DNA of 61,640 nt, filler included, from 6 parts of 6 records of this genome joined end to end with filler, not necessarily neighbours in it; one strand, 5' to 3'; shown: positions 4,494-47,831, counted from the whole stretch's first letter. The notes: generated by a model not told the origin, from the letters alone. Numbers and translations: made by a program.

Positions 4494-5450
4494 TTGGAAA
4501 CAGCTTTTATTACAAAGATCATCTCAAATCAATATACGATTTACGATATGCATAAACAAGAAAGTATTATTGCACAAGCACGTGGCAAACTAAGATATAT
4601 GCGTATTAACGAAGATAACACGTTTAATAAACAACTCACAAGAAAGACAAAAAAAGAAACAAAGATTATTCAAATTAGTCCTAAAATTGGTGATAGGGTT
4701 TATTATGCTAATGACCACGATCAAGTGTTTATTGAAGAGATACTTCCAAGAAAAAATGAACTCACAAGACCAGATGTTGCCAATGTGGATCAAGTATTAT
4801 TAGTATTTAGTGCAGTAAAACCAGATTTTAGTTTTTATTTACTTGATAAGTTCTTAGTAATTTTAAAACAAGAAAACTTGCAACCTGTGATTGTTATATC
4901 AAAAATTGATTTAATTGATGAACAAACCTTGTTCCAATTAAAAAAGGACTTAACGTATTATGAAAAAATAGGTTATGATTTATTTTATGTCAATAGTAAG
5001 CAAAAAATAGGTTTTGATGTATTAGAAGACATATTTAAAGATAAAATTACAGTACTTGCAGGTCAAACAGGTGTTGGGAAATCTACACTACTTAATGCCT
5101 TAATGCCACATTTAGGGTTAAAAACACAAGAAATATCCAAAGCATTAGGACGAGGTAAACATACAACAAGACACTCTGAGTTATATCGATTTAATCAAGG
5201 ATATATTGCTGATACACCAGGATTTTCAAAAATAGAATTTAAAATATATTATAAAGATGAACTTAAACGATTATATCCGGATTTTATGGCTTTATCAGAT
5301 GATTGTAAATTCAAGAATAAATGCATGCATTTACATGAGCCAAAATGTGCAGTCAAACTGGCTGTTGAAAACCAAGAAATACTAAAATCAAGATATGAGA
5401 ATTACAAAGCATTTTGCCAAGAAATTGAACAACAAAAAGCAAAATATTAA
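4494..5450 (+). CDS. rsgA: Ribosome small subunit-dependent GTPase A
   Basis: Circularly permuted GTPase (SKIDL, GQTGVGKS, GKHTT, DTPG) with C-terminal Zn site; TTG start after AGGAGG. Confidence 0.95.
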   Translation: METAFITKIISNQYTIYDMHKQESIIAQARGKLRYMRINEDNTFNKQLTRKTKKETKIIQISPKIGDRVYYANDHDQVFIEEILPRKNELTRPDVANVDQVLLVFSAVKPDFSFYLLDKFLVILKQENLQPVIVISKIDLIDEQTLFQLKKDLTYYEKIGYDLFYVNSKQKIGFDVLEDIFKDKITVLAGQTGVGKSTLLNALMPHLGLKTQEISKALGRGKHTTRHSELYRFNQGYIADTPGFSKIEFKIYYKDELKRLYPDFMALSDDCKFKNKCMHLHEPKCAVKLAVENQEILKSRYENYKAFCQEIEQQKAKY

Positions 5451-5459
5451 GGAGATTAT

Positions 5460-6089
5460 ATGTTAGTAGCCCCATCAATATTAACTGCAAATTTTGCAAA
5501 ATTAAAAAAACAATTAAAGAAAATATCTTCAGCTGATTATGTACATATTGATATTATGGATGGACATTTTGTTCCGAACATATCTTTTGGACCGAGTATC
5601 ACTGAAAAAATTAGTAAAGTGGCTCATCCTAAATTGGATGTTCATTTGATGGTCACTGACCCTCTTGATTGGATTGATAAGTTTAGCTTTAAACATGTCG
5701 AGTTTATAACGGTACATGTAGAATCTAATCATTACTATAAAGCGATGGACCGCATTAGAGAAAACGGTAAAAAAGTTGGGATTTCTATTAAACCATATAC
5801 GCCACTAGATGAGATTATAGGTTTACTTGATCAAGTTGATCTTGTGTTAGTTATGACAGTTGAACCAGGCTTTGGTGGGCAAAAATTCATGCCTGATATG
5901 TTAGAGAAAGTTAAAATGCTTAAATCATTTAAAGAAAAAAATAATTTTGATTTCTTGATAGAAGTCGATGGAGGCATTAATCAGCAAACCATCGATGTAT
6001 GTAAGGAAGCAGGGGTAGATATGGTTGTTGCTGGAAGTTATGTGTTTAATGCATTAGATAAAAAGAAAGCGATTGATTCCCTACGATGA
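5460..6089 (+). CDS. rpe: Ribulose-phosphate 3-epimerase
   Basis: APSIL, HIDIMDGHFVPN, MTVEPGFGGQ, EVDGG. Confidence 0.97.
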   Translation: MLVAPSILTANFAKLKKQLKKISSADYVHIDIMDGHFVPNISFGPSITEKISKVAHPKLDVHLMVTDPLDWIDKFSFKHVEFITVHVESNHYYKAMDRIRENGKKVGISIKPYTPLDEIIGLLDQVDLVLVMTVEPGFGGQKFMPDMLEKVKMLKSFKEKNNFDFLIEVDGGINQQTIDVCKEAGVDMVVAGSYVFNALDKKKAIDSLR

Positions 6090-8487: not shown

Positions 8488-8587
8488 NNNNNNNNNNNNN
8501 NNNNNNNNNNNNNNNNNNNNNNNNNNNNNNNTTAATTAATTAANNNNNNNNNNNNNNNNNNNNNNNNNNNNNNNNNNNNNNNNNNNN
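8488..8587. other. Artificial contig spacer (N44-TTAATTAATTAA-N44)
   Basis: N run with six-frame stop linker at 8532-8543; composition changes across it. Confidence 0.99.
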
Positions 8588-9009
8588 TTCCTTTAGAAGA
8601 AATACTTCCTTTAGAAGCGGAACCTGAACCTGAACCAGAAGTCGAGCCTGTACCCGAGCCAGTTGAAGTTGCAGTGGTTGAACCTGAACCTGATCCAATA
8701 ATTGAGGAAGAGGAAGAAGAAGATTTTACCCCATATGTAAAACCGGACACAGATCCGCGTTACTGGGTACTTGCCGGTTCTTATAATACCATTAATGATG
8801 CCGAGATTGGGTTGAACTATTTAAGCAGAAACGGTTTGAACGGTTCCATATCAGTAATCAGTGAAGAAGATTTTCAGCTGCGGCTTGGTCCGTATGGCAG
8901 CGCACAGCAGGCTCTTGAGTTTGCGGATGCGGTAAACAGTATTTCCGGATTTATCGGTCGAGCTACGGTGAATATAACCATCCCCAGAGCTTGGGATAAC
9001 GGATCATGA
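8588..9009 (+). CDS. SPOR-domain protein, 5'-truncated (Pro/Glu-rich linker plus SPOR domain)
   Basis: EPEPEP linker, then YWVLAGSY...A...L...G...FQLRLGPYGSAQQA SPOR pattern; frame open to the contig edge. Confidence 0.75.
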
Positions 9010-13538: not shown

Positions 13539-14030
13539 ATGAGTACACTTGTTATGTACGTCGTCACCGGGGTGCTGCTGATTATTTCCCTGGCTGCGAA
13601 TAGGTATAAAACACTGAAAGCACTGAAGAAATCATGGAAAGCCTTTGAGAATATTCTGCCGCAGGTGCTGGCTGTTCTGCTGATTGTCGGTGTTGTTGTG
13701 ACAGCTCTGAATCCAGAGACGATTTCACGTATTATCGGTTCTGAGTCGGGATGGTTTGGCACGCTGCTGGCTGCTCTGGTTGGTTCTGTTACACTGATTC
13801 CCGGGTTCATCGCTTTTCCAACGGCGGCCTTGCTGCTGGAGAACGGTGCCGGATACATGCAGATTGCAGCATTCGTTTCGACATTAATGATGGTTGGTGT
13901 TGTGACATATCCAGTGGAGCGGCAATATTTTGGCGCTAAGCTGACTCTGATCAGAAATGGCCTAGCTTTCGTTTTTTCATTCCTGGTAGCGGCGATCATA
14001 CATTGGGTGGCATCAGGAGCAACAGTATGA
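13539..14030 (+). CDS. DUF318-type predicted permease, subunit 1
   Basis: Hydrophobic; GSVTLIPGFIAFP.AA.LL..GAG motif. Confidence 0.75.
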   Translation: MSTLVMYVVTGVLLIISLAANRYKTLKALKKSWKAFENILPQVLAVLLIVGVVVTALNPETISRIIGSESGWFGTLLAALVGSVTLIPGFIAFPTAALLLENGAGYMQIAAFVSTLMMVGVVTYPVERQYFGAKLTLIRNGLAFVFSFLVAAIIHWVASGATV

Positions 14031-14554
14031 AAAAGTACCTGAAACGTTACCGTATGTTTCTCATTATGGTTGCTGTCATGCTGGTGATCCTGGCAGTCAA
14101 TATCGATTTTGGCAAGGAATCCTTACTGATTTCCGCCGACAGTCTGCTGGAGATGCTGACTATTATCCCGCCGATTTTTATTCTGCTTGGGCTGCTTGAT
14201 GTCTGGGTTCCCCGCGAAACGATGGTCCGCTATATGGGAGAAGGGTCCGGAATAAAAGGTGTAGTGATTGCATTTATCATCGGTTCGGCTGCCGCGGGTC
14301 CATTGTATGGGGCATTTCCCATTGCTGCAGTATTTCTGAGGAAAGGTGCCAGTTTCAGGAATGTGCTGATTTTTATCGGAGCCTGGTCAACGACGAAAGT
14401 GCCTATGTTCCTGTTCGAGTACGCGTCGCTTGGGGCGCGCTTTGCCGTTACCCGTCTGCTGGTTGATATTCCCGGCATAATCCTTATCGCTGCACTGATC
14501 AATCGGTTGATGTCGCAGGAGCAGAAAGATGGGATTATTGAGCAGCTGCCGTAG
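14027..14554 (+). CDS. DUF318-type predicted permease, subunit 2
   Basis: PPIFILLGLLDVWVP, AAGPLYGAFP, GAWSTTK; ATGA overlap with the previous gene. Confidence 0.78.
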   Translation: MKKYLKRYRMFLIMVAVMLVILAVNIDFGKESLLISADSLLEMLTIIPPIFILLGLLDVWVPRETMVRYMGEGSGIKGVVIAFIIGSAAAGPLYGAFPIAAVFLRKGASFRNVLIFIGAWSTTKVPMFLFEYASLGARFAVTRLLVDIPGIILIAALINRLMSQEQKDGIIEQLP

Positions 14555-15946: not shown

Positions 15947-17458
15947 TTACACTACAAGTCCATTCCGGTATTTTTCCATATACTCGGCAAATTTATGCTG
16001 CTCCAGCGGCGGAGTAAAATAATATCCCTGAACGTAGTCAACATTGAGGCGGCGGGCGAAATCGAGATGACCGCGGTGTTCAATTCCTTTCAGCATTTTC
16101 TTTAGATGCATACTGCGGGCGGCGTTGATAATCGACTTGTAAAATCTGAATTCCCGATCGGCAAATGACGAGGAGGCGGAGAGCGGTTCCATAGCCGATT
16201 TTCCATTATCACTCCGGCTGTTATCAACGGTAGTTTCGTTATGGCGGAGGACTGACTTATGAATTTTAACCGTATCAAAAGAGTTATACAGAAATGAATT
16301 GAGAGCAAAACTGTCTGAAGAGAACATATCGATTGCCACTCTGAACCCCGCTTTCTTTAATTCGGCAATACTTGAGATAATGAACTCATCGGTCAGGGGC
16401 TCGTCCTTGATATCAAATTCAATATAAGCAGGGTCAAGCTCATAGCGATGTGCCAGCTCCTTTATACTGCTGATCGGAAGATCCCGTAATGTGTTGGCAC
16501 TGATATTGACCATCGTGATGAAGTCATCAACAATCAATCCCTTATTTCGCAGTTCCCAGACAAAATGAAAGGTCTTGTTTATTACTCTAAAGTCAATGTC
16601 TTTTAACAAGTTCTTCTCATTGGCAATCTCGGTAAAATTATGGGCTTCAATGATTCGATAACTGTTTTTCTGCCAGCGTACAAAGCTTTCACAGCCGATA
16701 ATTTTTTCATTCTCAAGATCGATTATCGGTTGAAAAAACGGATTGAACTCATCAAGGCGAAAACTCTCTTCCATCGAGAGGGTGAAATCATCAATATCCG
16801 TTTTCAGATTGCGGATGAGTTCATCTGCGATAAGGAATGGTTTATGCTGCTCCAGGGCTATCAACTTGGTGAATTGGGCCAGACGTATTAATCCATAGAC
16901 ACTGGTGAAGTCCTTGCGGACTCCCTGGGATGCGGTCCCCATAGTCAGTTTAATGAAATGACGATTATCCACAGGAAGTGTTTCCAGTAGACAGGTGAAC
17001 CTGACGGTGATTTCCCTGGTGATGGTAGCCATCTCCTGATAGCGGACCTCGAAATTGGCATCGGGATTGGTGAATTCAGCTATGATGATGGCTTGGTTCT
17101 GTTCAATGGAAAAGACATTCTTTTTACCAAACAGACTGCGTAGATTTACAAAGAATTCATCGTGATAGCTCATATCGAAATGCAGATCAAGCATTGAATG
17201 ATATTTACCCGAATTGCGGTACTCCAGCGCGATGCAGAAATAGGATTCTGCATCAATATTGCTGTATTTTTTCCTGATTGATTTGGGTGATTTCACCAGT
17301 GGATTATGCTTTTTCCCCAGTGTTGTCAGAATGGTCAGAATCAAAAGCAATATAGCCGAAGCCCCCAGCTGGATCCGTTGGTCAGCCCGGGGAATAGTGA
17401 TTAGTGCCGTCAGTGTCAGACCCAGGATATACAGCGGAATAAGTTTTTTTCTCAGCAC
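15947..17458 (-). CDS. Membrane-anchored degenerate GGDEF-EAL domain protein (probable c-di-GMP effector)
   Basis: Two N-terminal TM segments; GGDEF-like remnant (KLTMGTAS, LIRLAQ); EAL domain FQPII..ESFVRW, VNIS, QGYYF with degenerate catalytic motifs. Confidence 0.85.
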   Translation of the reverse strand: MLRKKLIPLYILGLTLTALITIPRADQRIQLGASAILLLILTILTTLGKKHNPLVKSPKSIRKKYSNIDAESYFCIALEYRNSGKYHSMLDLHFDMSYHDEFFVNLRSLFGKKNVFSIEQNQAIIIAEFTNPDANFEVRYQEMATITREITVRFTCLLETLPVDNRHFIKLTMGTASQGVRKDFTSVYGLIRLAQFTKLIALEQHKPFLIADELIRNLKTDIDDFTLSMEESFRLDEFNPFFQPIIDLENEKIIGCESFVRWQKNSYRIIEAHNFTEIANEKNLLKDIDFRVINKTFHFVWELRNKGLIVDDFITMVNISANTLRDLPISSIKELAHRYELDPAYIEFDIKDEPLTDEFIISSIAELKKAGFRVAIDMFSSDSFALNSFLYNSFDTVKIHKSVLRHNETTVDNSRSDNGKSAMEPLSASSSFADREFRFYKSIINAARSMHLKKMLKGIEHRGHLDFARRLNVDYVQGYYFTPPLEQHKFAEYMEKYRNGLVV

Positions 17459-17708
17459 AGTTGCCCCCTAGCATTCTAGTCTGTGAGTATAGAGCAGGAG
17501 CGGGATGGTATGCCGGTTCTATTGCCTGGCAAGGTTATGAGTTCGTAATATTATATATCAGTACAAGGTCGATACACTGCCGGGGAAGTTTATACGTAAT
17601 CCCCAGACAGTGCATCATACCTAACTCATACTCATCTGTTCCGAAAACGATTGAATTTCAGTCGCTGCCGGTAAATCATTACTCCTGAAATGTATTCATT
17701 TGATACAG

Positions 17709-18749
17709 CTATTCTGTTGGTTTAACAAAGTAGCTGCCGCGGTTCTTCAGCAGGAGTTTTGTTCCTTCCACGATCGCGGTCATGGGTTTCCTGGAAATAT
17801 GAAAATCCAGGGAGACGCGACTTTTCAGGAACTCATCCACACCATCAATCAGAGCGCCGCCGCCATTGATTACAATACCGTTAACGATGATATCTGCCGA
17901 TAATTCGGCAGGTGTTCGCTGCAGTACCTTGAGAATGGTGGTTGCGATAGTCTCAAAAGGTTCAACAAGGATATCCCTGATTTCCGATTCATAGATAGTG
18001 ATTTTTTTAGGGAGTCCGGTAACAATATCTCTGCCGCTGGCAGTGGTGGACCGTTCATCGGGGATGGTCTCCCGCAGTGAACCGATCTCTTCTTTGATAC
18101 GTTCAGCGGTCTTTTTCCCAATCAGTAATCCATGCTTGTACTGCAGGTGGTTGATAATTTCGGAGTCAAAATAGTTTCCTGCAACTCGTACGGATTCTGA
18201 TACAACAATATCCCCCAGAGACAGAACACCGATATCCGTAGATCCGCCGCCGATGTCGATAACCATGGTGCCCTGACTGCTGTAGATATCGAGACCTGCC
18301 CCGATTCCGCCTGCCTTGACCTCTTCTTCGATAAATACATCATGTACCCCGATTTTGAGAGCCAGCTCAATGATTGAGTTCTTTTCAAGCTGAGTCACTT
18401 CAGAAGGGCAGCAGATAAGCAGGGTAGAGGTGTTCAGGTCAATGTGGAAAGTTTCAACTTTTCGCAAAGCTATTTCGATCAGTTGCTTGGCGGCATCCAT
18501 ATCGGAGATAACTCCCTGGTTCAGGGGGCTGATTATTTTAATTCCGTGATGCCCGCGGCCAATCATAGCGGCTGCATTGTTTCCTATGGCAATAACTTTA
18601 TCGCTTTCATATTCAACCGCTATTACTGATGGTTCATTGAAAATGATTCCTTCACCATCAACATATACAAGCAAGTTTGCCGTTCCCAGATCAATTCCAA
18701 TATTAGTAGCCTGTTTTTTCATTCTTTTGGTTATGTTCTTAATATTCAT
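17709..18749 (-). CDS. mreB: MreB/Mbl family actin homologue, paralogue 3
   Basis: IGIDLGTAN, NEPS, CPSEVT, EEEVK, DIGGGSTD, GRD..TGLP, GGGAL. Confidence 0.95.
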   Translation of the reverse strand: MNIKNITKRMKKQATNIGIDLGTANLLVYVDGEGIIFNEPSVIAVEYESDKVIAIGNNAAAMIGRGHHGIKIISPLNQGVISDMDAAKQLIEIALRKVETFHIDLNTSTLLICCPSEVTQLEKNSIIELALKIGVHDVFIEEEVKAGGIGAGLDIYSSQGTMVIDIGGGSTDIGVLSLGDIVVSESVRVAGNYFDSEIINHLQYKHGLLIGKKTAERIKEEIGSLRETIPDERSTTASGRDIVTGLPKKITIYESEIRDILVEPFETIATTILKVLQRTPAELSADIIVNGIVINGGGALIDGVDEFLKSRVSLDFHISRKPMTAIVEGTKLLLKNRGSYFVKPTE

Positions 18750-18818
18750 ATTCGAAATTCTCCTGACATAATTTGATGTTACGGCGTGATGCCGTTTCCG
18801 GTATGCTCGGAATGCCTG

Positions 18819-19846
18819 CTACATCGCAAGTGGATTAATTAAATAATCACCGCGGTTCTTCAGCAGGAATTTTGTTCCTTCAGCCACACAGGTCAATGGA
18901 TTGGCGACTACACGTACCGGAACATTGATGTGCTTATTGATATATTCATCGACTCCTCTTACCAGAGAACCCCCACCGGTTAACAGAATACCATTCTGAT
19001 AAATATCGGCTGAGAGCTCGGGAGGAGTATCCTTGAGTACCGCAGCAACCAATTTCACAATCTCCTGAAAGATCGGCAGGAGTATTTCCCTGATCTCATC
19101 TGTGGCAATGGAAATCCATTTTGGAATACCTTGAACGATATCCCGGCCGGCATACTTATTGTTCAGTACTTTAATTTCGTCATGGATGTCGGCCAGCTCG
19201 ATCTTGCAGCGCTCGGAGGTCAACTCCCCGATTTCGACACTGCGGGTCTTCTTGATATACTTGGCGATTTCATCATCCATAAAATTACCCGCCATCCTGA
19301 TTGTCCGTGAAAGCACAATATCACCATATGACAAGATACCGATATCTGTTGTTCCACCGCCGATATCGACGATCATTACCCCTTTGGACTTGAAGATATT
19401 CACCCCGGCACCTAAGGCCCCGGACTTGATTTCCTCTTCAATGAAAATGTCCTGTATGCCCATGTTGTGTGCCAGATCAATCATCACGTCCCGTTCAATC
19501 TTTGTCACTTCCGACGGACAGCAAATTACGCTTGTCGTGTTGCTCAGATCCTTTTCGGTAAGCTTTTCCACCTGATTCAGGACGTATGAAAGCAACGCTT
19601 TGGCTGCACGCATGTCCGATATCACGCCATTTCTCAGCGGCTTGATTACGGAAATTTTACTATGAACCTTTCCCAGCATTTTGTGTGCATCCTTTCCGGC
19701 AGCGACAATCTTACCTGATTCCCGATCGAAAGCGATAACCGATGGTTCATTGAAGATTATTCCTTTTTTTCCAGATACACCAGCAGGTTCGCTGTACCAA
19801 GATCGATACCCAGATTTATTTTTCCATCATTCGCAGTTGTACTCAT
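18819..19846 (-). CDS. mreB: MreB/Mbl family actin homologue, paralogue 2 (frameshift in A7 run at 19764-19770; ~342 aa if restored)
   Basis: ATG at 19846 gives MSTTANDGKINLGIDLGTANLLVYLEKK; one extra A continues GIIFNEPS into the 18819-19679 ORF (EEEIK, DIGGGTTD, TPPEL, LTGGGSL). Confidence 0.9.
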
Positions 19847-19856
19847 ATCATTCCCC

Positions 19857-20888
19857 CTACAGTGTTCCCAGATAGTGTGGTTGTTCAGCTTTCAGCAGTT
19901 TCTTACAGCCGTCAATGACCGCAGTCATTGGTGATTCCGAAATATATACCGGGACATTGGTTATATCCGCAATATATTCCTGAATTCCCGGAATCTGTGA
20001 TCCGCCGCCGCTGAGCAGAATCCCGTTATCCACGAGATCCCCGGCAAGTTCCGGGGGAGTTGATTCCAGGGTTGCTATGAGGATTGATTTGATATTGTCA
20101 AAACAATTCAGCAGCAGTTTGCGAATCTCCTTGGCGGTAATGGTCACCTCTCTGGGCAGTCCTGAGACAAGATCACGTCCCATAGCCTTGCACTTGAGCG
20201 TTTTGCTGTCTTCGTCTGCTGGAAGTTTCCCAGTGAGTGAAGATAGTGTTATTTTTACCCTTTCAGCAGTCTGGGGGCCTATTTCCAGCTGATGAATCTC
20301 TTTGATATAGTCGATAATCTGTTTGTCGAAATAATCCCCGGCAGTCTTGATCGATTTGGATAATACGACATCCCCTAGGGACAGTACCCCGAAATCGGTG
20401 GTGCCTCCGCCAATATCGACTACCAGATGACCATGGGGTGCATAGATGTCTATTCCACTCCCGATGGCTGCAGCCTTGATCTCTTCATCAATGGTTATGT
20501 TCTGGATCCCCAGACCATATCCAAGTTCGATAATGGCATCCTTTTCCGTTTCGGTTATTTCCGATGGAATACAGATGATCAATTTGGTGATGGTATTCAC
20601 TTTTGACTGGAAAATGCTTTCAAGGGTAAAGATTAAAATCTCCTTGATCATGTCGATGTCCGAGATGACTCCGCCCTGCAGAGGACGGATTACCTTGACT
20701 TTGTCATGTGTTTTTCCAACCAGGCTGGATGCCTCATATCCAACCGCTACCACATTCTGCGTTGCCTGATCAATCGCTATGATTGACGGCTCATTGAAGA
20801 CGGTCCCTTGCCCTTCGACATAAATCAGCAGATTTGATGTCCCCAGGTCAATGCCCACGGAAAGATGCTTTGATGTTTTCTCTTTCAT
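19857..20888 (-). CDS. mreB: MreB/Mbl family actin homologue, paralogue 1
   Basis: VGIDLGTSN, NEPS, DEEIKAAAIG, DIGGGTTD, GRDLVSGLP, TPPEL, LSGGGSQ. Confidence 0.95.
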   Translation of the reverse strand: MKEKTSKHLSVGIDLGTSNLLIYVEGQGTVFNEPSIIAIDQATQNVVAVGYEASSLVGKTHDKVKVIRPLQGGVISDIDMIKEILIFTLESIFQSKVNTITKLIICIPSEITETEKDAIIELGYGLGIQNITIDEEIKAAAIGSGIDIYAPHGHLVVDIGGGTTDFGVLSLGDVVLSKSIKTAGDYFDKQIIDYIKEIHQLEIGPQTAERVKITLSSLTGKLPADEDSKTLKCKAMGRDLVSGLPREVTITAKEIRKLLLNCFDNIKSILIATLESTPPELAGDLVDNGILLSGGGSQIPGIQEYIADITNVPVYISESPMTAVIDGCKKLLKAEQPHYLGTL

Positions 20889-20966
20889 GTTTCACTCCCA
20901 TGTGTGTTGTAATGTCGCACCTCCGGCTTCACGATCACAACCGGATACCGGAGATTGCGGAGCTGC

Positions 20967-20999
20967 AAAAAAAGACCTTGAGGTATCTCAAGGTCTTTT
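20967..20999 (-). terminator. Intrinsic terminator in the mreB leader (riboswitch expression platform)
   Basis: Minus strand AGACCTTGAG-ATAC-CTCAAGGTCT (10-bp perfect stem) with a T7 run; between the aptamer and the mreB-1 start. Confidence 0.9.
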
Positions 21000-21070
21000 C
21001 ATAGGTATACACGCACAATATTATCGGGACTGCATAGTTAGTGAGGCAGGTAAACTATATATTTCTTCCC

Positions 21071-21177
21071 GGCAATAAATATTGCAGTCCAGCCAGCATG
21101 AGTGCCAACGACACTGGTAGCTCTGTGACTTTGCGTGTACACGTTTCCATGTACTTGCCCTTTGAATATTTATACCC
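21071..21177 (-). ncRNA. c-di-GMP-I (GEMM-I) riboswitch aptamer
   Basis: Minus strand ATAAATATT-CAAAGGGCAA-GTACATG-GAAA-CGTGTAC-ACGCAAAGTC-ACAGAGCTA...ATGCTGGCTGGACT-GC-AATATTTAT: P1 of 9 bp, P2 with GAAA tetraloop, ACGCAAAG junction, P3 with receptor-like loop. Confidence 0.88.
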
Positions 21178-21183
21178 ATGAAA

Positions 21184-21212
21184 ATGCTGTCACATGTTTT
21201 GCATCTTGTCAA
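21184..21212 (-). promoter_or_regulatory. Possible sigma70 promoter for the riboswitch-mreB transcript
   Basis: Perfect TTGACA (21212-21207), then 17 nt, then a weak CAGCAT -10 just upstream of P1. Confidence 0.4.
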
Positions 21213-26424: not shown

Positions 26425-26524
26425 NNNNNNNNNNNNNNNNNNNNNNNNNNNNNNNNNNNNNNNNNNNNTTAATTAATTAANNNNNNNNNNNNNNNNNNNN
26501 NNNNNNNNNNNNNNNNNNNNNNNN
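26425..26524. other. Artificial contig spacer
   Basis: N run with TTAATTAATTAA at 26469-26480. Confidence 0.99.
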
Positions 26525-36345: not shown

Positions 36346-36445
36346 NNNNNNNNNNNNNNNNNNNNNNNNNNNNNNNNNNNNNNNNNNNNTTAATTAATTA
36401 ANNNNNNNNNNNNNNNNNNNNNNNNNNNNNNNNNNNNNNNNNNNN
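36346..36445. other. Artificial contig spacer
   Basis: N run with TTAATTAATTAA at 36390-36401. Confidence 0.99.
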
Positions 36446-41982: not shown

Positions 41983-42082
41983 NNNNNNNNNNNNNNNNNN
42001 NNNNNNNNNNNNNNNNNNNNNNNNNNTTAATTAATTAANNNNNNNNNNNNNNNNNNNNNNNNNNNNNNNNNNNNNNNNNNNN
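41983..42082. other. Artificial contig spacer
   Basis: N run with TTAATTAATTAA at 42027-42038. Confidence 0.99.
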
Positions 42083-47731: not shown

Positions 47732-47831
47732 NNNNNNNNNNNNNNNNNNNNNNNNNNNNNNNNNNNNNNNNNNNNTTAATTAATTAANNNNNNNNNNNNN
47801 NNNNNNNNNNNNNNNNNNNNNNNNNNNNNNN
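47732..47831. other. Artificial contig spacer
   Basis: N run with TTAATTAATTAA at 47776-47787. Confidence 0.99.

Follow-up and report, generated by a model that had tools for sequence, protein, structure and literature searches.

An operon of a c-di-GMP-I riboswitch, three MreB paralogues and a membrane GGDEF-like/EAL protein

The DNA analysed here (referred to as the window) is a composite stretch of 61,640 nucleotides (nt) made up of six contig pieces, and the system in question is a four-gene operon at positions 15947-21212. A riboswitch of the cyclic di-GMP (c-di-GMP) class I and an intrinsic terminator head the genes mreB-1, mreB-2 and mreB-3, which are followed by a fourth gene encoding a membrane protein with a GGDEF-like and an EAL domain (Table 1). 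A preliminary description of this DNA had placed all of these parts on the minus strand, and all of them were found there. In the following, loci fetched from other genomes and metagenomes carry L numbers, genomes of relatives G numbers and proteins P numbers.

Table 1. Positions of the operon's features and of the joined pieces in the window
Feature	Position	Strand	Remarks
Promoter-like hexamer TTGACA	21212-21207	minus	weak
Promoter-like hexamers GTGACA-17-AATATT	21193-21165	minus	weak
Putative P1 helix, 5' strand AAAUAUU	21171-21165		pairs with AAUAUUU
c-di-GMP-I (GEMM-I) aptamer, RF01051	21169-21080	minus	60.5 bits vs gathering 35, E 2.2e-9, model positions 1-87/87
Putative P1 helix, 3' strand AAUAUUU	21083-21077		pairs with AAAUAUU
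Conserved P1 mimic, AAUAUUGUGCGUGUAUAC	21022-21005	minus	resembles P1 5' strand; can pair P1 3' strand or aptamer core
Intrinsic terminator	20999-20967	minus	AAAAGACCTTGAG-ATAC-CTCAAGGTCTTTTTTT; 11-bp stem, AUAC loop, U7 tract; fold -15.9 kcal/mol
mreB-1	20888-19857	minus	343 amino acids (aa); PF06723 373.7 bits
mreB-2	19846-18819	minus	two frames as written; PF06723 305.6 bits for the 286-aa ATG-started open reading frame 19679-18819
A7 run in mreB-2	19770-19764		one A missing, -1 frameshift
mreB-3	18749-17709	minus	346 aa; PF06723 378.1 bits
Untranslated gap mreB-3/EAL gene	17459-17708		250 nt
GGDEF-like/EAL gene	17458-15947	minus	503 aa; Pfam finds EAL only, 128.5 bits
Operon-carrying contig piece	8588-26424		17,837 nt, GC 46%, bounded by spacers
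Spacers	8488-8587, 26425-26524, 36346-36445, 41983-42082, 47732-47831		100 nt each

The aptamer was the only gathering-level Rfam match anywhere in the window, and its end lies 191 nt from the ATG of mreB-1. Its earlier identification as a c-di-GMP-I aptamer is upheld by the strong covariance-model match and by RF01051 aptamers at the same place in orthologous loci, where the leaders scored 50.4-73 bits. The putative helix P1 was read from the sequence. The terminator that had been claimed was likewise found, as a hairpin with its U tract, ~80 nt past the aptamer and without overlap with it, and a GGGAG ribosome-binding site stands between it and mreB-1. A strong terminator ahead of the mreB-1 ribosome-binding site was present in 10 of 13 orthologous leaders. 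The conserved P1 mimic of the window has a similar counterpart, AAUAUUGUG, directly 5' of the terminator in the nine leaders that were folded, and we infer that this segment is an alternative, anti-aptamer pairing element. The proposed promoter fared less well: the hexamer TTGACA is literally present, but no -10 hexamer was found at 16-18 nt from it, and the 16 promoter-like sites in the region were not above chance (12.2 +/- 3.9 in shuffles).

All three mreB genes of the preliminary description matched PF06723, mreB-2 being broken as written. Their nucleotide-binding motifs (DLGT, EE, DIGGG[TS]TD and GGG), read from the translations, are intact in each of them. Within the E...T-X-[D/E] ATPase motif, as defined in PMC9597168, MreB-3 has S-T-D where MreB-1 and MreB-2 have T-T-D. 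Among 20 MreB-3 orthologues, S170 is at least 90% conserved and T171 and D172 are invariant, with a mean column identity of 78% over the protein. The gap between mreB-3 and the EAL gene measures 122-400 nt in L001-L003, and Izemoplasmatales-type cassettes have almost no gap at this place; the spacer is unconserved (31% mean column identity, one row masked) and gave no Rfam match. A 410-aa protein (P0168, on a 3753-nt contig) with both MreB and EAL Pfam matches was considered as a natural fusion and rejected. In it, the first 53 residues of an MreB-3 continue into the GGDEF-like domain from its middle on, probably through a deletion or because the contig is chimeric, and it offers no support.

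The frameshift in mreB-2, after which the first 29 codons end at TAA and the remainder lies in the -1 frame, could be taken as the mark of an operon that is decaying in its source organism, with mreB-2 as a pseudogene and no current function. Breaks were also seen elsewhere: the cassette of one relative (G006:C27:35627-40142) carries stop codons within mreB-1 (TAA, in frame) and the EAL gene (TGA), and its mreB-3 is short (284-aa frame), either through poor assembly or through local decay, and L046 gave broken mreB-2 and mreB-3 matches. The lesion in the window, however, amounts to one base of an A8 homopolymer. The orthologues of L003 and L005 have A8 at this position, and so does, in frame, a 151-nt contig (depth 2.1) that is otherwise 100% identical to the window and comes from a public DNA run carrying only ~1/10 of the words sampled from it. 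Furthermore, mreB-2 is intact in L001, L002, L003 and L005 and in the 12 metagenome loci that gave a full-length MreB-2 to the tree described below, and the conservation of MreB-3 given above also speaks against decay. Since the orthologues and the otherwise identical public contig have A8, we interpret the frameshift as an error of assembly or a variant arisen by slippage, not as gene decay, and a decaying operon is considered most improbable.

For the product of the fourth gene, an AlphaFold2 model from an alignment of 48 sequences (predicted local distance difference test, pLDDT, 84.3; predicted template modelling score, pTM, 0.75) comprised N-terminal membrane helices at residues 2-21 and 27-50, an alpha/beta domain (73-210), a connecting helix and an EAL barrel (238-497). 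The best Foldseek matches over 440-500 columns were tandem GGDEF-EAL structures, namely PA0575 (5m3c, E 6.9e-24), MorA, DosP, PA0861 and LapD (3pjw, E 4.5e-18). Four members of the EAL family bear a precomputed GGDEF Pfam match, and PF00990 was not detected in the protein of the window at E<=1e-3. Because of these tandem structures and the four GGDEF matches, the order of membrane segment, degenerate GGDEF domain and EAL domain that had been proposed is right. The GG(D/E)EF motif is absent, the hairpin 115-128 reading VFSIEQNQAIIIAE, so that a GGDEF-like fold without the active-site motif of a diguanylate cyclase was found.

A complete catalytic EAL site consists of the set E-R-N-E-E-DD-K-E-Q with a loop 6 of the type DFG(T/A)GYSS. 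In the 48 sequences of the family E257, R261, N318, D349, D377, K398, E460 and Q477 are invariant. Compared with the active enzyme Bd1971, which was the best sequence match (140 bits), the first Glu of ExxE is replaced by Asp (D349) in all 48 sequences, the second Asp of DDFGTG is replaced family-wide (A/M) with loss of the GTG loop, and the first Glu of EGVE has become Lys (K457), also family-wide. This last Glu is presumably the general base, in line with studies of RocR and TBD1265. Most catalytic residues are kept, so that the EAL domain is less degenerate than implied in the preliminary description, and judging from these residues its site very likely still binds c-di-GMP. The family also includes proteins of Izimaplasma HR1, ZiA1 and MAGs (metagenome-assembled genomes) of Izemoplasmatales, and the EAL protein of Sphaerochaeta-type loci is only 28-30% identical to that of the window. 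A complex prediction for MreB-3 and residues 55-503 of the EAL protein scored 0.00, with the alignments unused by the tool, and carries no weight either way.

The three MreBs are only 41-50% identical to one another and all of them ~40% identical to the canonical MreB of Spirochaetia. To their respective counterparts, however, they showed 82-88% identity in L001-L003, 71-78% in Sphaerochaeta-type loci and 65-77% in low-GC loci; MreB-1 alone gave 82-83% to L001/L002 and 67% to low-GC loci. Named homologues of MreB-1 among the matches listed included those of Sphaerochaeta and Pleomorphochaeta (71-73% for the first in the list) and of Ca. Izimaplasma and Ca. Xianfuyuplasma coldseepsis (67-70%), and with the three MreBs of Ca. 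Izimaplasma/Ca. Xianfuyuplasma a 1:1 orthology at 65-77% identity was observed. A tree was calculated from 69 sequences, including 10 canonical Spirochaetia MreBs and leaving out Haloplasma and Spiroplasma sequences. Each paralogue formed one clade with a support of 100 in the Shimodaira-Hasegawa-like approximate likelihood ratio test (SH-aLRT), holding window, spirochaete and low-GC rows, and a long branch split the three paralogues from the canonical MreBs. MreB-1 of L052 is identical to a protein that NCBI names for Ca. Izimaplasma HR1 (P0072); the named anchors P0072 and P0093 fall within the MreB-1 clade, and L069 is sister to Xianfuyuplasma. Identities and tree together show the three MreBs as ancient paralogues, one-to-one orthologous to the MreBs of Izemoplasmatales.

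Among solved structures, 7bvy (275-287 bits) and 7e1c (267 bits) were the best matches for all three paralogues, and lower scores of 229-255 bits were obtained for the MreBs of Caulobacter (4cz entries), Thermotoga (1jce) and 7zpt/8azg. 7bvy is MreB5 of Spiroplasma citri and 7e1c MreB3 of S. eriocheiris (PMC9597168). The earlier view that these MreBs stand outside the ordinary Rod-complex MreB agrees with the low identity to canonical Spirochaetia MreB, the long branch and the 65-77% identity to Izemoplasmatales. Its label 'Spiroplasma-type' is matched by the best solved structures, but Izemoplasmatales/Haloplasma-type is the better wording. Published trees, as far as the available text of 10.1101/2020.05.13.095042 describes them, place a Haloplasma-Izimaplasma clade between the Spiroplasma MreBs and Bacillus MreBH. 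Because of this placement, and because Spirochaetia otherwise have a different, vertically consistent MreB, we infer an origin on the Bacillota/Mollicute side.

When species genomes were scanned with the EAL protein, five loci were obtained, in four Spirochaetales/Spirochaetia MAGs and in Sphaerochaeta sp. S2. A metagenome scan with the family alignment added 41 further family loci as well as 38 control loci with generic EAL genes, and gene order was determined by tblastn. Sixteen loci besides the window, in two phyla, have mreB-1, mreB-2, mreB-3 and the EAL gene in this order on one strand, so that the synteny first noted in the window is conserved elsewhere. The EAL gene is immediately preceded by mreB-3 in 30 of 46 family loci; in two others (L056 and L063) it stands first, followed by mreB-1 to mreB-3, and for 10 family loci the upstream sequence was too short to judge MreB neighbours. 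No MreB was found in any of the 38 control loci. L056 contains tandem c-di-GMP-I aptamers (5251-5338 and 5773-5862) ahead of its EAL-first cassette; on its opposite strand lies a T-box leader (2461-2710), which suggests a Bacillota-type host.

The riboswitch was followed in the same manner. RF01051 was present in six of ten genomes of relatives searched (G001, G003, G005, G006, G009 and G010), with exactly one copy in each. In five of these six the single copy is directly upstream of mreB-1, and in G003 the aptamer stands at the end of one contig and mreB-1 begins another. The aptamer also precedes mreB-1 in the metagenome loci L046, L052, L058, L059, L065, L067 and L069. Of the 18 loci in which 200 nt or more of sequence precede mreB-1, 13 have the aptamer; upstream of mreB-1 none was detected in L005, L072, L073, L075 and L076, and a rescan of L005 and L073 at E<=1 gave nothing. 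Four of these five loci fall in the Sphaerochaeta-type group of the tree. Gene order and aptamer matches show the cassette, usually with its riboswitch, as common to the spirochaete group and Izemoplasmatales.

Between 9 and 31 GGDEF matches were counted per genome of the relatives, which thus have the enzymes to make c-di-GMP; EAL matches numbered 1-3 per genome in G001, G003, G006 and G010. When nine leaders were cut before the 3' arm of the terminator, its 5' arm paired with the aptamer core in all nine; the partner was the 5' core (UUCAAAGGGC) in eight leaders and the ACGC junction in the ninth. With the aptamer locked in folding, the 5' arm was free or only locally paired. Since the 5' arm pairs with the aptamer core unless the aptamer is locked, an OFF switch is the logic that we regard as reasonably probable. 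With the ligand bound, the aptamer would keep its 5' core and P1, the terminator would form and transcription would stop. Without ligand, the downstream P1 mimic would open the aptamer and the freed core would pair with the 5' arm of the terminator, resulting in read-through. ON-switch logic was rejected, as the terminator does not overlap the aptamer and, by eye, the P1 mimic has no complementarity to the terminator arms. A terminator overlapping the aptamer is the design reported for many GEMM RNAs (PMC1950547).

MreB is normally treated as a housekeeping guide of wall synthesis. The three MreBs might be ordinary wall-elongation paralogues like Bacillus MreB, Mbl and MreBH, which would guide peptidoglycan synthesis while the riboswitch tunes the growth mode; intact nucleotide-binding motifs would suit such a role, as would the one SEDS protein and the one class-B penicillin-binding protein (PBP) that the host spirochaetes keep. 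In the five relatives first found, the clustered MreBs were the only strong MreB matches. The residual ones, in frames of ~480-650 aa (<=58 bits), 199 aa (29 bits) and ~420 aa (<=27 bits), we take to be Hsp70 and FtsA from their length and Pfam cross-hits. MreC and MreD were each found in 0 of these 5 genomes, and each genome has a single SEDS and a single class-B PBP/transpeptidase, with no further copy as a candidate for RodA or PBP2. In G001, G003, G004 and G005 the SEDS gene lies on the contig of the FtsA-like match, 0.4 to 1.6 kb apart from it. A Rod complex with MreC, MreD, RodA and PBP2 beside MreB was not found in the relatives, and the earlier remark that mreC, mreD, rodA and pbp2 are missing from the neighbourhood holds genome-wide in them.

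This was extended to an evenly drawn sample of 101 Spirochaetia genomes, which were searched for MreB, MreC and FliG. Nine genomes were of the triple type (330-402 bits to Pfam MreB for full-length proteins), and MreC, FliG and canonical MreB were found in none of the nine. Canonical MreB was present in 80 genomes (438-486 bits for intact genes), of which 79 had MreC, adjacent where both were listed, and all 80 had FliG. The remaining 12 had no MreB at E<=1e-60; MreC was found in one of them and FliG in four. Triple-type and canonical MreB were mutually exclusive in the 101 genomes. The losses of the triple type fit the available text of PMC7738495, according to which rodA and mreC are missing from Sphaerochaeta and Bullifex and most Sphaerochaeta retain mreB. 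It is firmly supported that the spirochaete relatives searched yielded no MreB system besides the cassette and no Rod-complex partner genes. A role in ordinary wall elongation is therefore very unlikely, given that MreC, MreD and a second SEDS/class-B PBP are missing in five of five relatives, that MreC accompanies canonical but not triple-type MreB, and that canonical MreBs from this class are only ~40% identical. Moreover, the orthologues occur in Izemoplasmatales, which the available text of PMC8397711 describes as wall-less.

As the window is a composite, the surroundings of the operon were treated with caution. Its junctions are five spacers, each consisting of an N run, TTAATTAATTAA and a second N run, and the GC content of the six pieces ranges from 31% to 47%. 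MnmA on the operon's own piece is 72% identical to MnmA of G005 and 66% to that of G003. PheS on piece 1 is up to 85% identical to Acholeplasmataceae/Tenericutes proteins, among the matches bearing a name, and ~34% identical to PheS of the operon's spirochaete relatives; by PheS, piece 1 looks Acholeplasmataceae/Tenericutes-like. TonB-receptor genes lie on pieces 3 and 6, and piece 6 also has genes for type IX secretion system (T9SS) tails. Because the remaining five pieces are unrelated DNA joined by spacers, only genes of the operon-carrying piece are its context, and context read across a spacer is unsafe. The TonB-receptor, sigma-54 and T9SS-tail genes were ruled out as operon context, since they sit on other pieces. 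None of 10 flanking window proteins matched any fetched cassette locus at E<=1e-10; as no flanking protein recurs beside the cassette in these loci, it can be regarded as a self-contained unit. On the same piece, two overlapping reading frames at 13539-14554 (163 and 183 aa) match the ArsP_1 permease family by its back and its front half, with the order of the two swapped, and may be a split or rearranged permease gene. The piece begins at 8588-8760 within a reading frame rich in Glu-Pro repeats (EPEPEPEVEPVPEP...), which is truncated by the contig end.

Several known systems are comparable with the cassette in part. With the canonical mreBCD-rodA-pbp2 elongasome, known from spiral spirochaetes and model rods, it shares the Pfam family MreB_Mbl, but the Pfam scores differ (330-402 versus 438-486 bits) and there is no adjacent mreC here. 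Cd1, a c-di-GMP-I OFF riboswitch before the flgB operon of Clostridioides difficile, silences the motility apparatus at high c-di-GMP. The present leader is alike in that a class-I aptamer and then a terminator stand ahead of a large structural operon; it differs in the actin-like MreBs as controlled genes, in a terminator that lies past the aptamer without overlap and in its OFF sign, which is only predicted. The fourth protein resembles the degenerate receptors LapD and FimX (3pjw, 4j40), likewise membrane or polar proteins, whose non-catalytic GGDEF fold precedes an EAL domain capable of binding c-di-GMP. Unlike LapD, it has no periplasmic output domain or HAMP, and in the AlphaFold2 model its two membrane helices are predicted to be only five residues (22-26) apart, so that no LapD-type inside-out receptor was recognised. 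The EAL domain of LapD has not retained the EAL-motif Glu and most metal ligands, whereas these are kept here and the best sequence match is an active enzyme.

The swimming apparatus of Spiroplasma consists of five MreB classes plus fibril, compared with three MreB classes and a GGDEF-like/EAL protein here, and we know of no second-messenger control in it. Wall-independent use of MreB is, to our knowledge, known only from Mollicutes, and we know of no regulator of such use. The cassette and Spiroplasma MreB1-5 (PMC9597168) are alike in having multiple MreBs without peptidoglycan synthesis and one paralogue, here MreB-3, with a variant T-X-[D/E] motif, and SciMreB5 (7bvy) and SpeMreB3 (7e1c) are the best solved matches. 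In the available text of 10.64898/2026.06.16.731841, the MreB clusters of Izimaplasma/Xianfuyuplasma are named I1-I3, and Haloplasma relatives are reported to form membrane-associated ribbons and to move syn3B cells. With I1-I3 of Ca. Izimaplasma HR1/HR2 and Ca. Xianfuyuplasma coldseepsis the cassette shares three one-to-one orthologous ancient paralogues, and with I1-I3 and the contractile HMreBs of Haloplasma a Mollicute-type clade apart from Rod-complex MreB. The hosts differ, namely a diderm spirochaete with peptidoglycan genes here and wall-less Mollicutes there. The available text of 10.64898/2026.06.16.731841 and 10.1101/2020.05.13.095042 mentions neither a riboswitch, c-di-GMP and an EAL gene nor spirochaetes, and reports no function for I1-I3. 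A literature search found no link between a c-di-GMP riboswitch and MreB and no report of these MreBs in spirochaetes, in line with the preliminary description, which knew of no MreB operon controlled in this way; a leader of this kind might still appear in the supplementary gene tables of surveys of riboswitches.

The explanation that we favour, and hold to be fairly probable, is that of a transferred, c-di-GMP-gated MreB cassette that shapes the cell without wall elongation, with the EAL protein as coupler. The cassette would have been acquired horizontally from the Bacillota/Mollicute side by a spirochaete lineage in which the native mreBCD-rodA-pbp2 had already been lost. Membrane-associated MreB filaments would give the cell its shape or deform it without depending on wall elongation, and c-di-GMP would gate transcription of the operon, most likely as an OFF signal. 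The fourth protein would bind c-di-GMP at its partly degenerate EAL site and, at the membrane, link this signal with the filaments; instead, or in addition, it could trim c-di-GMP as feedback.

A number of observations weigh against this explanation. The Sphaerochaeta-type loci (L005, L072, L073, L075 and L076) keep the four genes without the riboswitch, and transcriptional control by c-di-GMP is therefore not obligatory. The tree leaves the window, Sphaerochaeta and Izemoplasmatales groups unresolved against each other within each paralogue and does not give the direction of transfer. Cultured Xianfuyuplasma, which bears orthologous MreBs, is described in the available text of PMC8397711 as non-motile and coccoid. 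The antiterminator pairing looks weak in the folding calculations: in 2-24% of the trials with shuffled arms (83% with L009) the pair count was equalled, the reverse-complement arm was equally good in the window and three other leaders, and full-length minimum-energy folds retained the terminator in either state. The absences of Rod-complex genes rest on MAGs of relatives of unknown completeness and not on the window's own genome, although nine out of nine in three independent searches are hard to ascribe to gaps. With most of its catalytic EAL residues kept, the fourth protein may simply be a phosphodiesterase. Finally, in four low-GC loci (L047, L049, L060 and L078) the riboswitch stands immediately ahead of an EAL-family gene, with no MreB present, and the RNA may be tied primarily to the EAL gene; because these loci pair the two without MreB, the tie to the EAL gene is at least as close as that to the MreBs.

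The last two points lead to an alternative in which the cassette is a c-di-GMP feedback circuit. The riboswitch would control an active EAL phosphodiesterase, the MreBs would be co-transcribed cargo unlinked to the EAL protein, and an OFF switch would create a bistable loop, an ON switch homeostasis. Such a circuit agrees with the stand-alone pairs of riboswitch and EAL-family gene, with the invariance of E257, R261, N318, D377, K398, E460 and Q477, and with Bd1971 as best sequence match; given the 1-3 EAL matches per genome in G001, G003, G006 and G010, the protein may be a main phosphodiesterase there. The site has, however, lost the second Asp and the GTG loop of DDFGTG, the first Glu of EGVE (Lys) and the first Glu of ExxE (Asp, 48/48). 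Furthermore, the EAL gene adjoins mreB-3 or mreB-1 in 32 of 46 family loci of two phyla, riboswitch-less loci included. On these grounds the feedback circuit is judged unlikely.

The EAL-family gene also has neighbours of another kind. A K/E-rich, coiled-coil-like protein without Pfam match is encoded 3' of it, on the same strand, in L049 (2744-5206; P0361, 820 aa) and L047 (2873-4651; at least 593 aa, cut by the contig end). In six cassettes of the Izemoplasmatales type, namely L052 (7370-10069), L058, L059, L065, L067 and L069, the EAL gene is followed in the same orientation by a weak homologue (21-34% identity, E 4e-15 to 9e-6 with tblastn) that falls in an open frame 883-900 codons long. 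The spirochaete version of the cassette is without this gene, and the protein is a possible fifth component. Because the EAL gene accompanies filament-type proteins in two arrangements, a role of the EAL family at a cytoskeletal structure is favoured.

A bolder form of the favoured explanation can be put forward only tentatively and is, as a whole, rather unlikely. The cassette would be a portable c-di-GMP-gated actin machine, in which a membrane ribbon of three MreBs bends, extends or contracts the cell without a wall partner. The GGDEF-like/EAL protein would serve as a membrane clutch, and Izemoplasmatales would add the coiled-coil protein of ~890 residues. Transfer of this machine into flagella- and Rod-less spirochaetes would then explain the pleomorphy of Sphaerochaeta and Pleomorphochaeta.

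For the biology of these bacteria, the cassette would add a second-messenger input to wall-independent MreB, and no genome with this riboswitch was found to have a second of its class. For a link between c-di-GMP and the filaments, the conserved fourth gene is the obvious candidate. The whole unit would move between phyla, and it appears to have replaced the native MreB system in coccoid, flagella-less spirochaetes. The Sphaerochaeta-type cassettes, having no aptamer, offer a natural control for what the riboswitch does. What the three Izimaplasma-like MreBs do and how they are controlled becomes testable in this way, as cultured Sphaerochaeta, Pleomorphochaeta and Xianfuyuplasma exist and the syn3B expression platform has already been used for the MreBs of Haloplasma.

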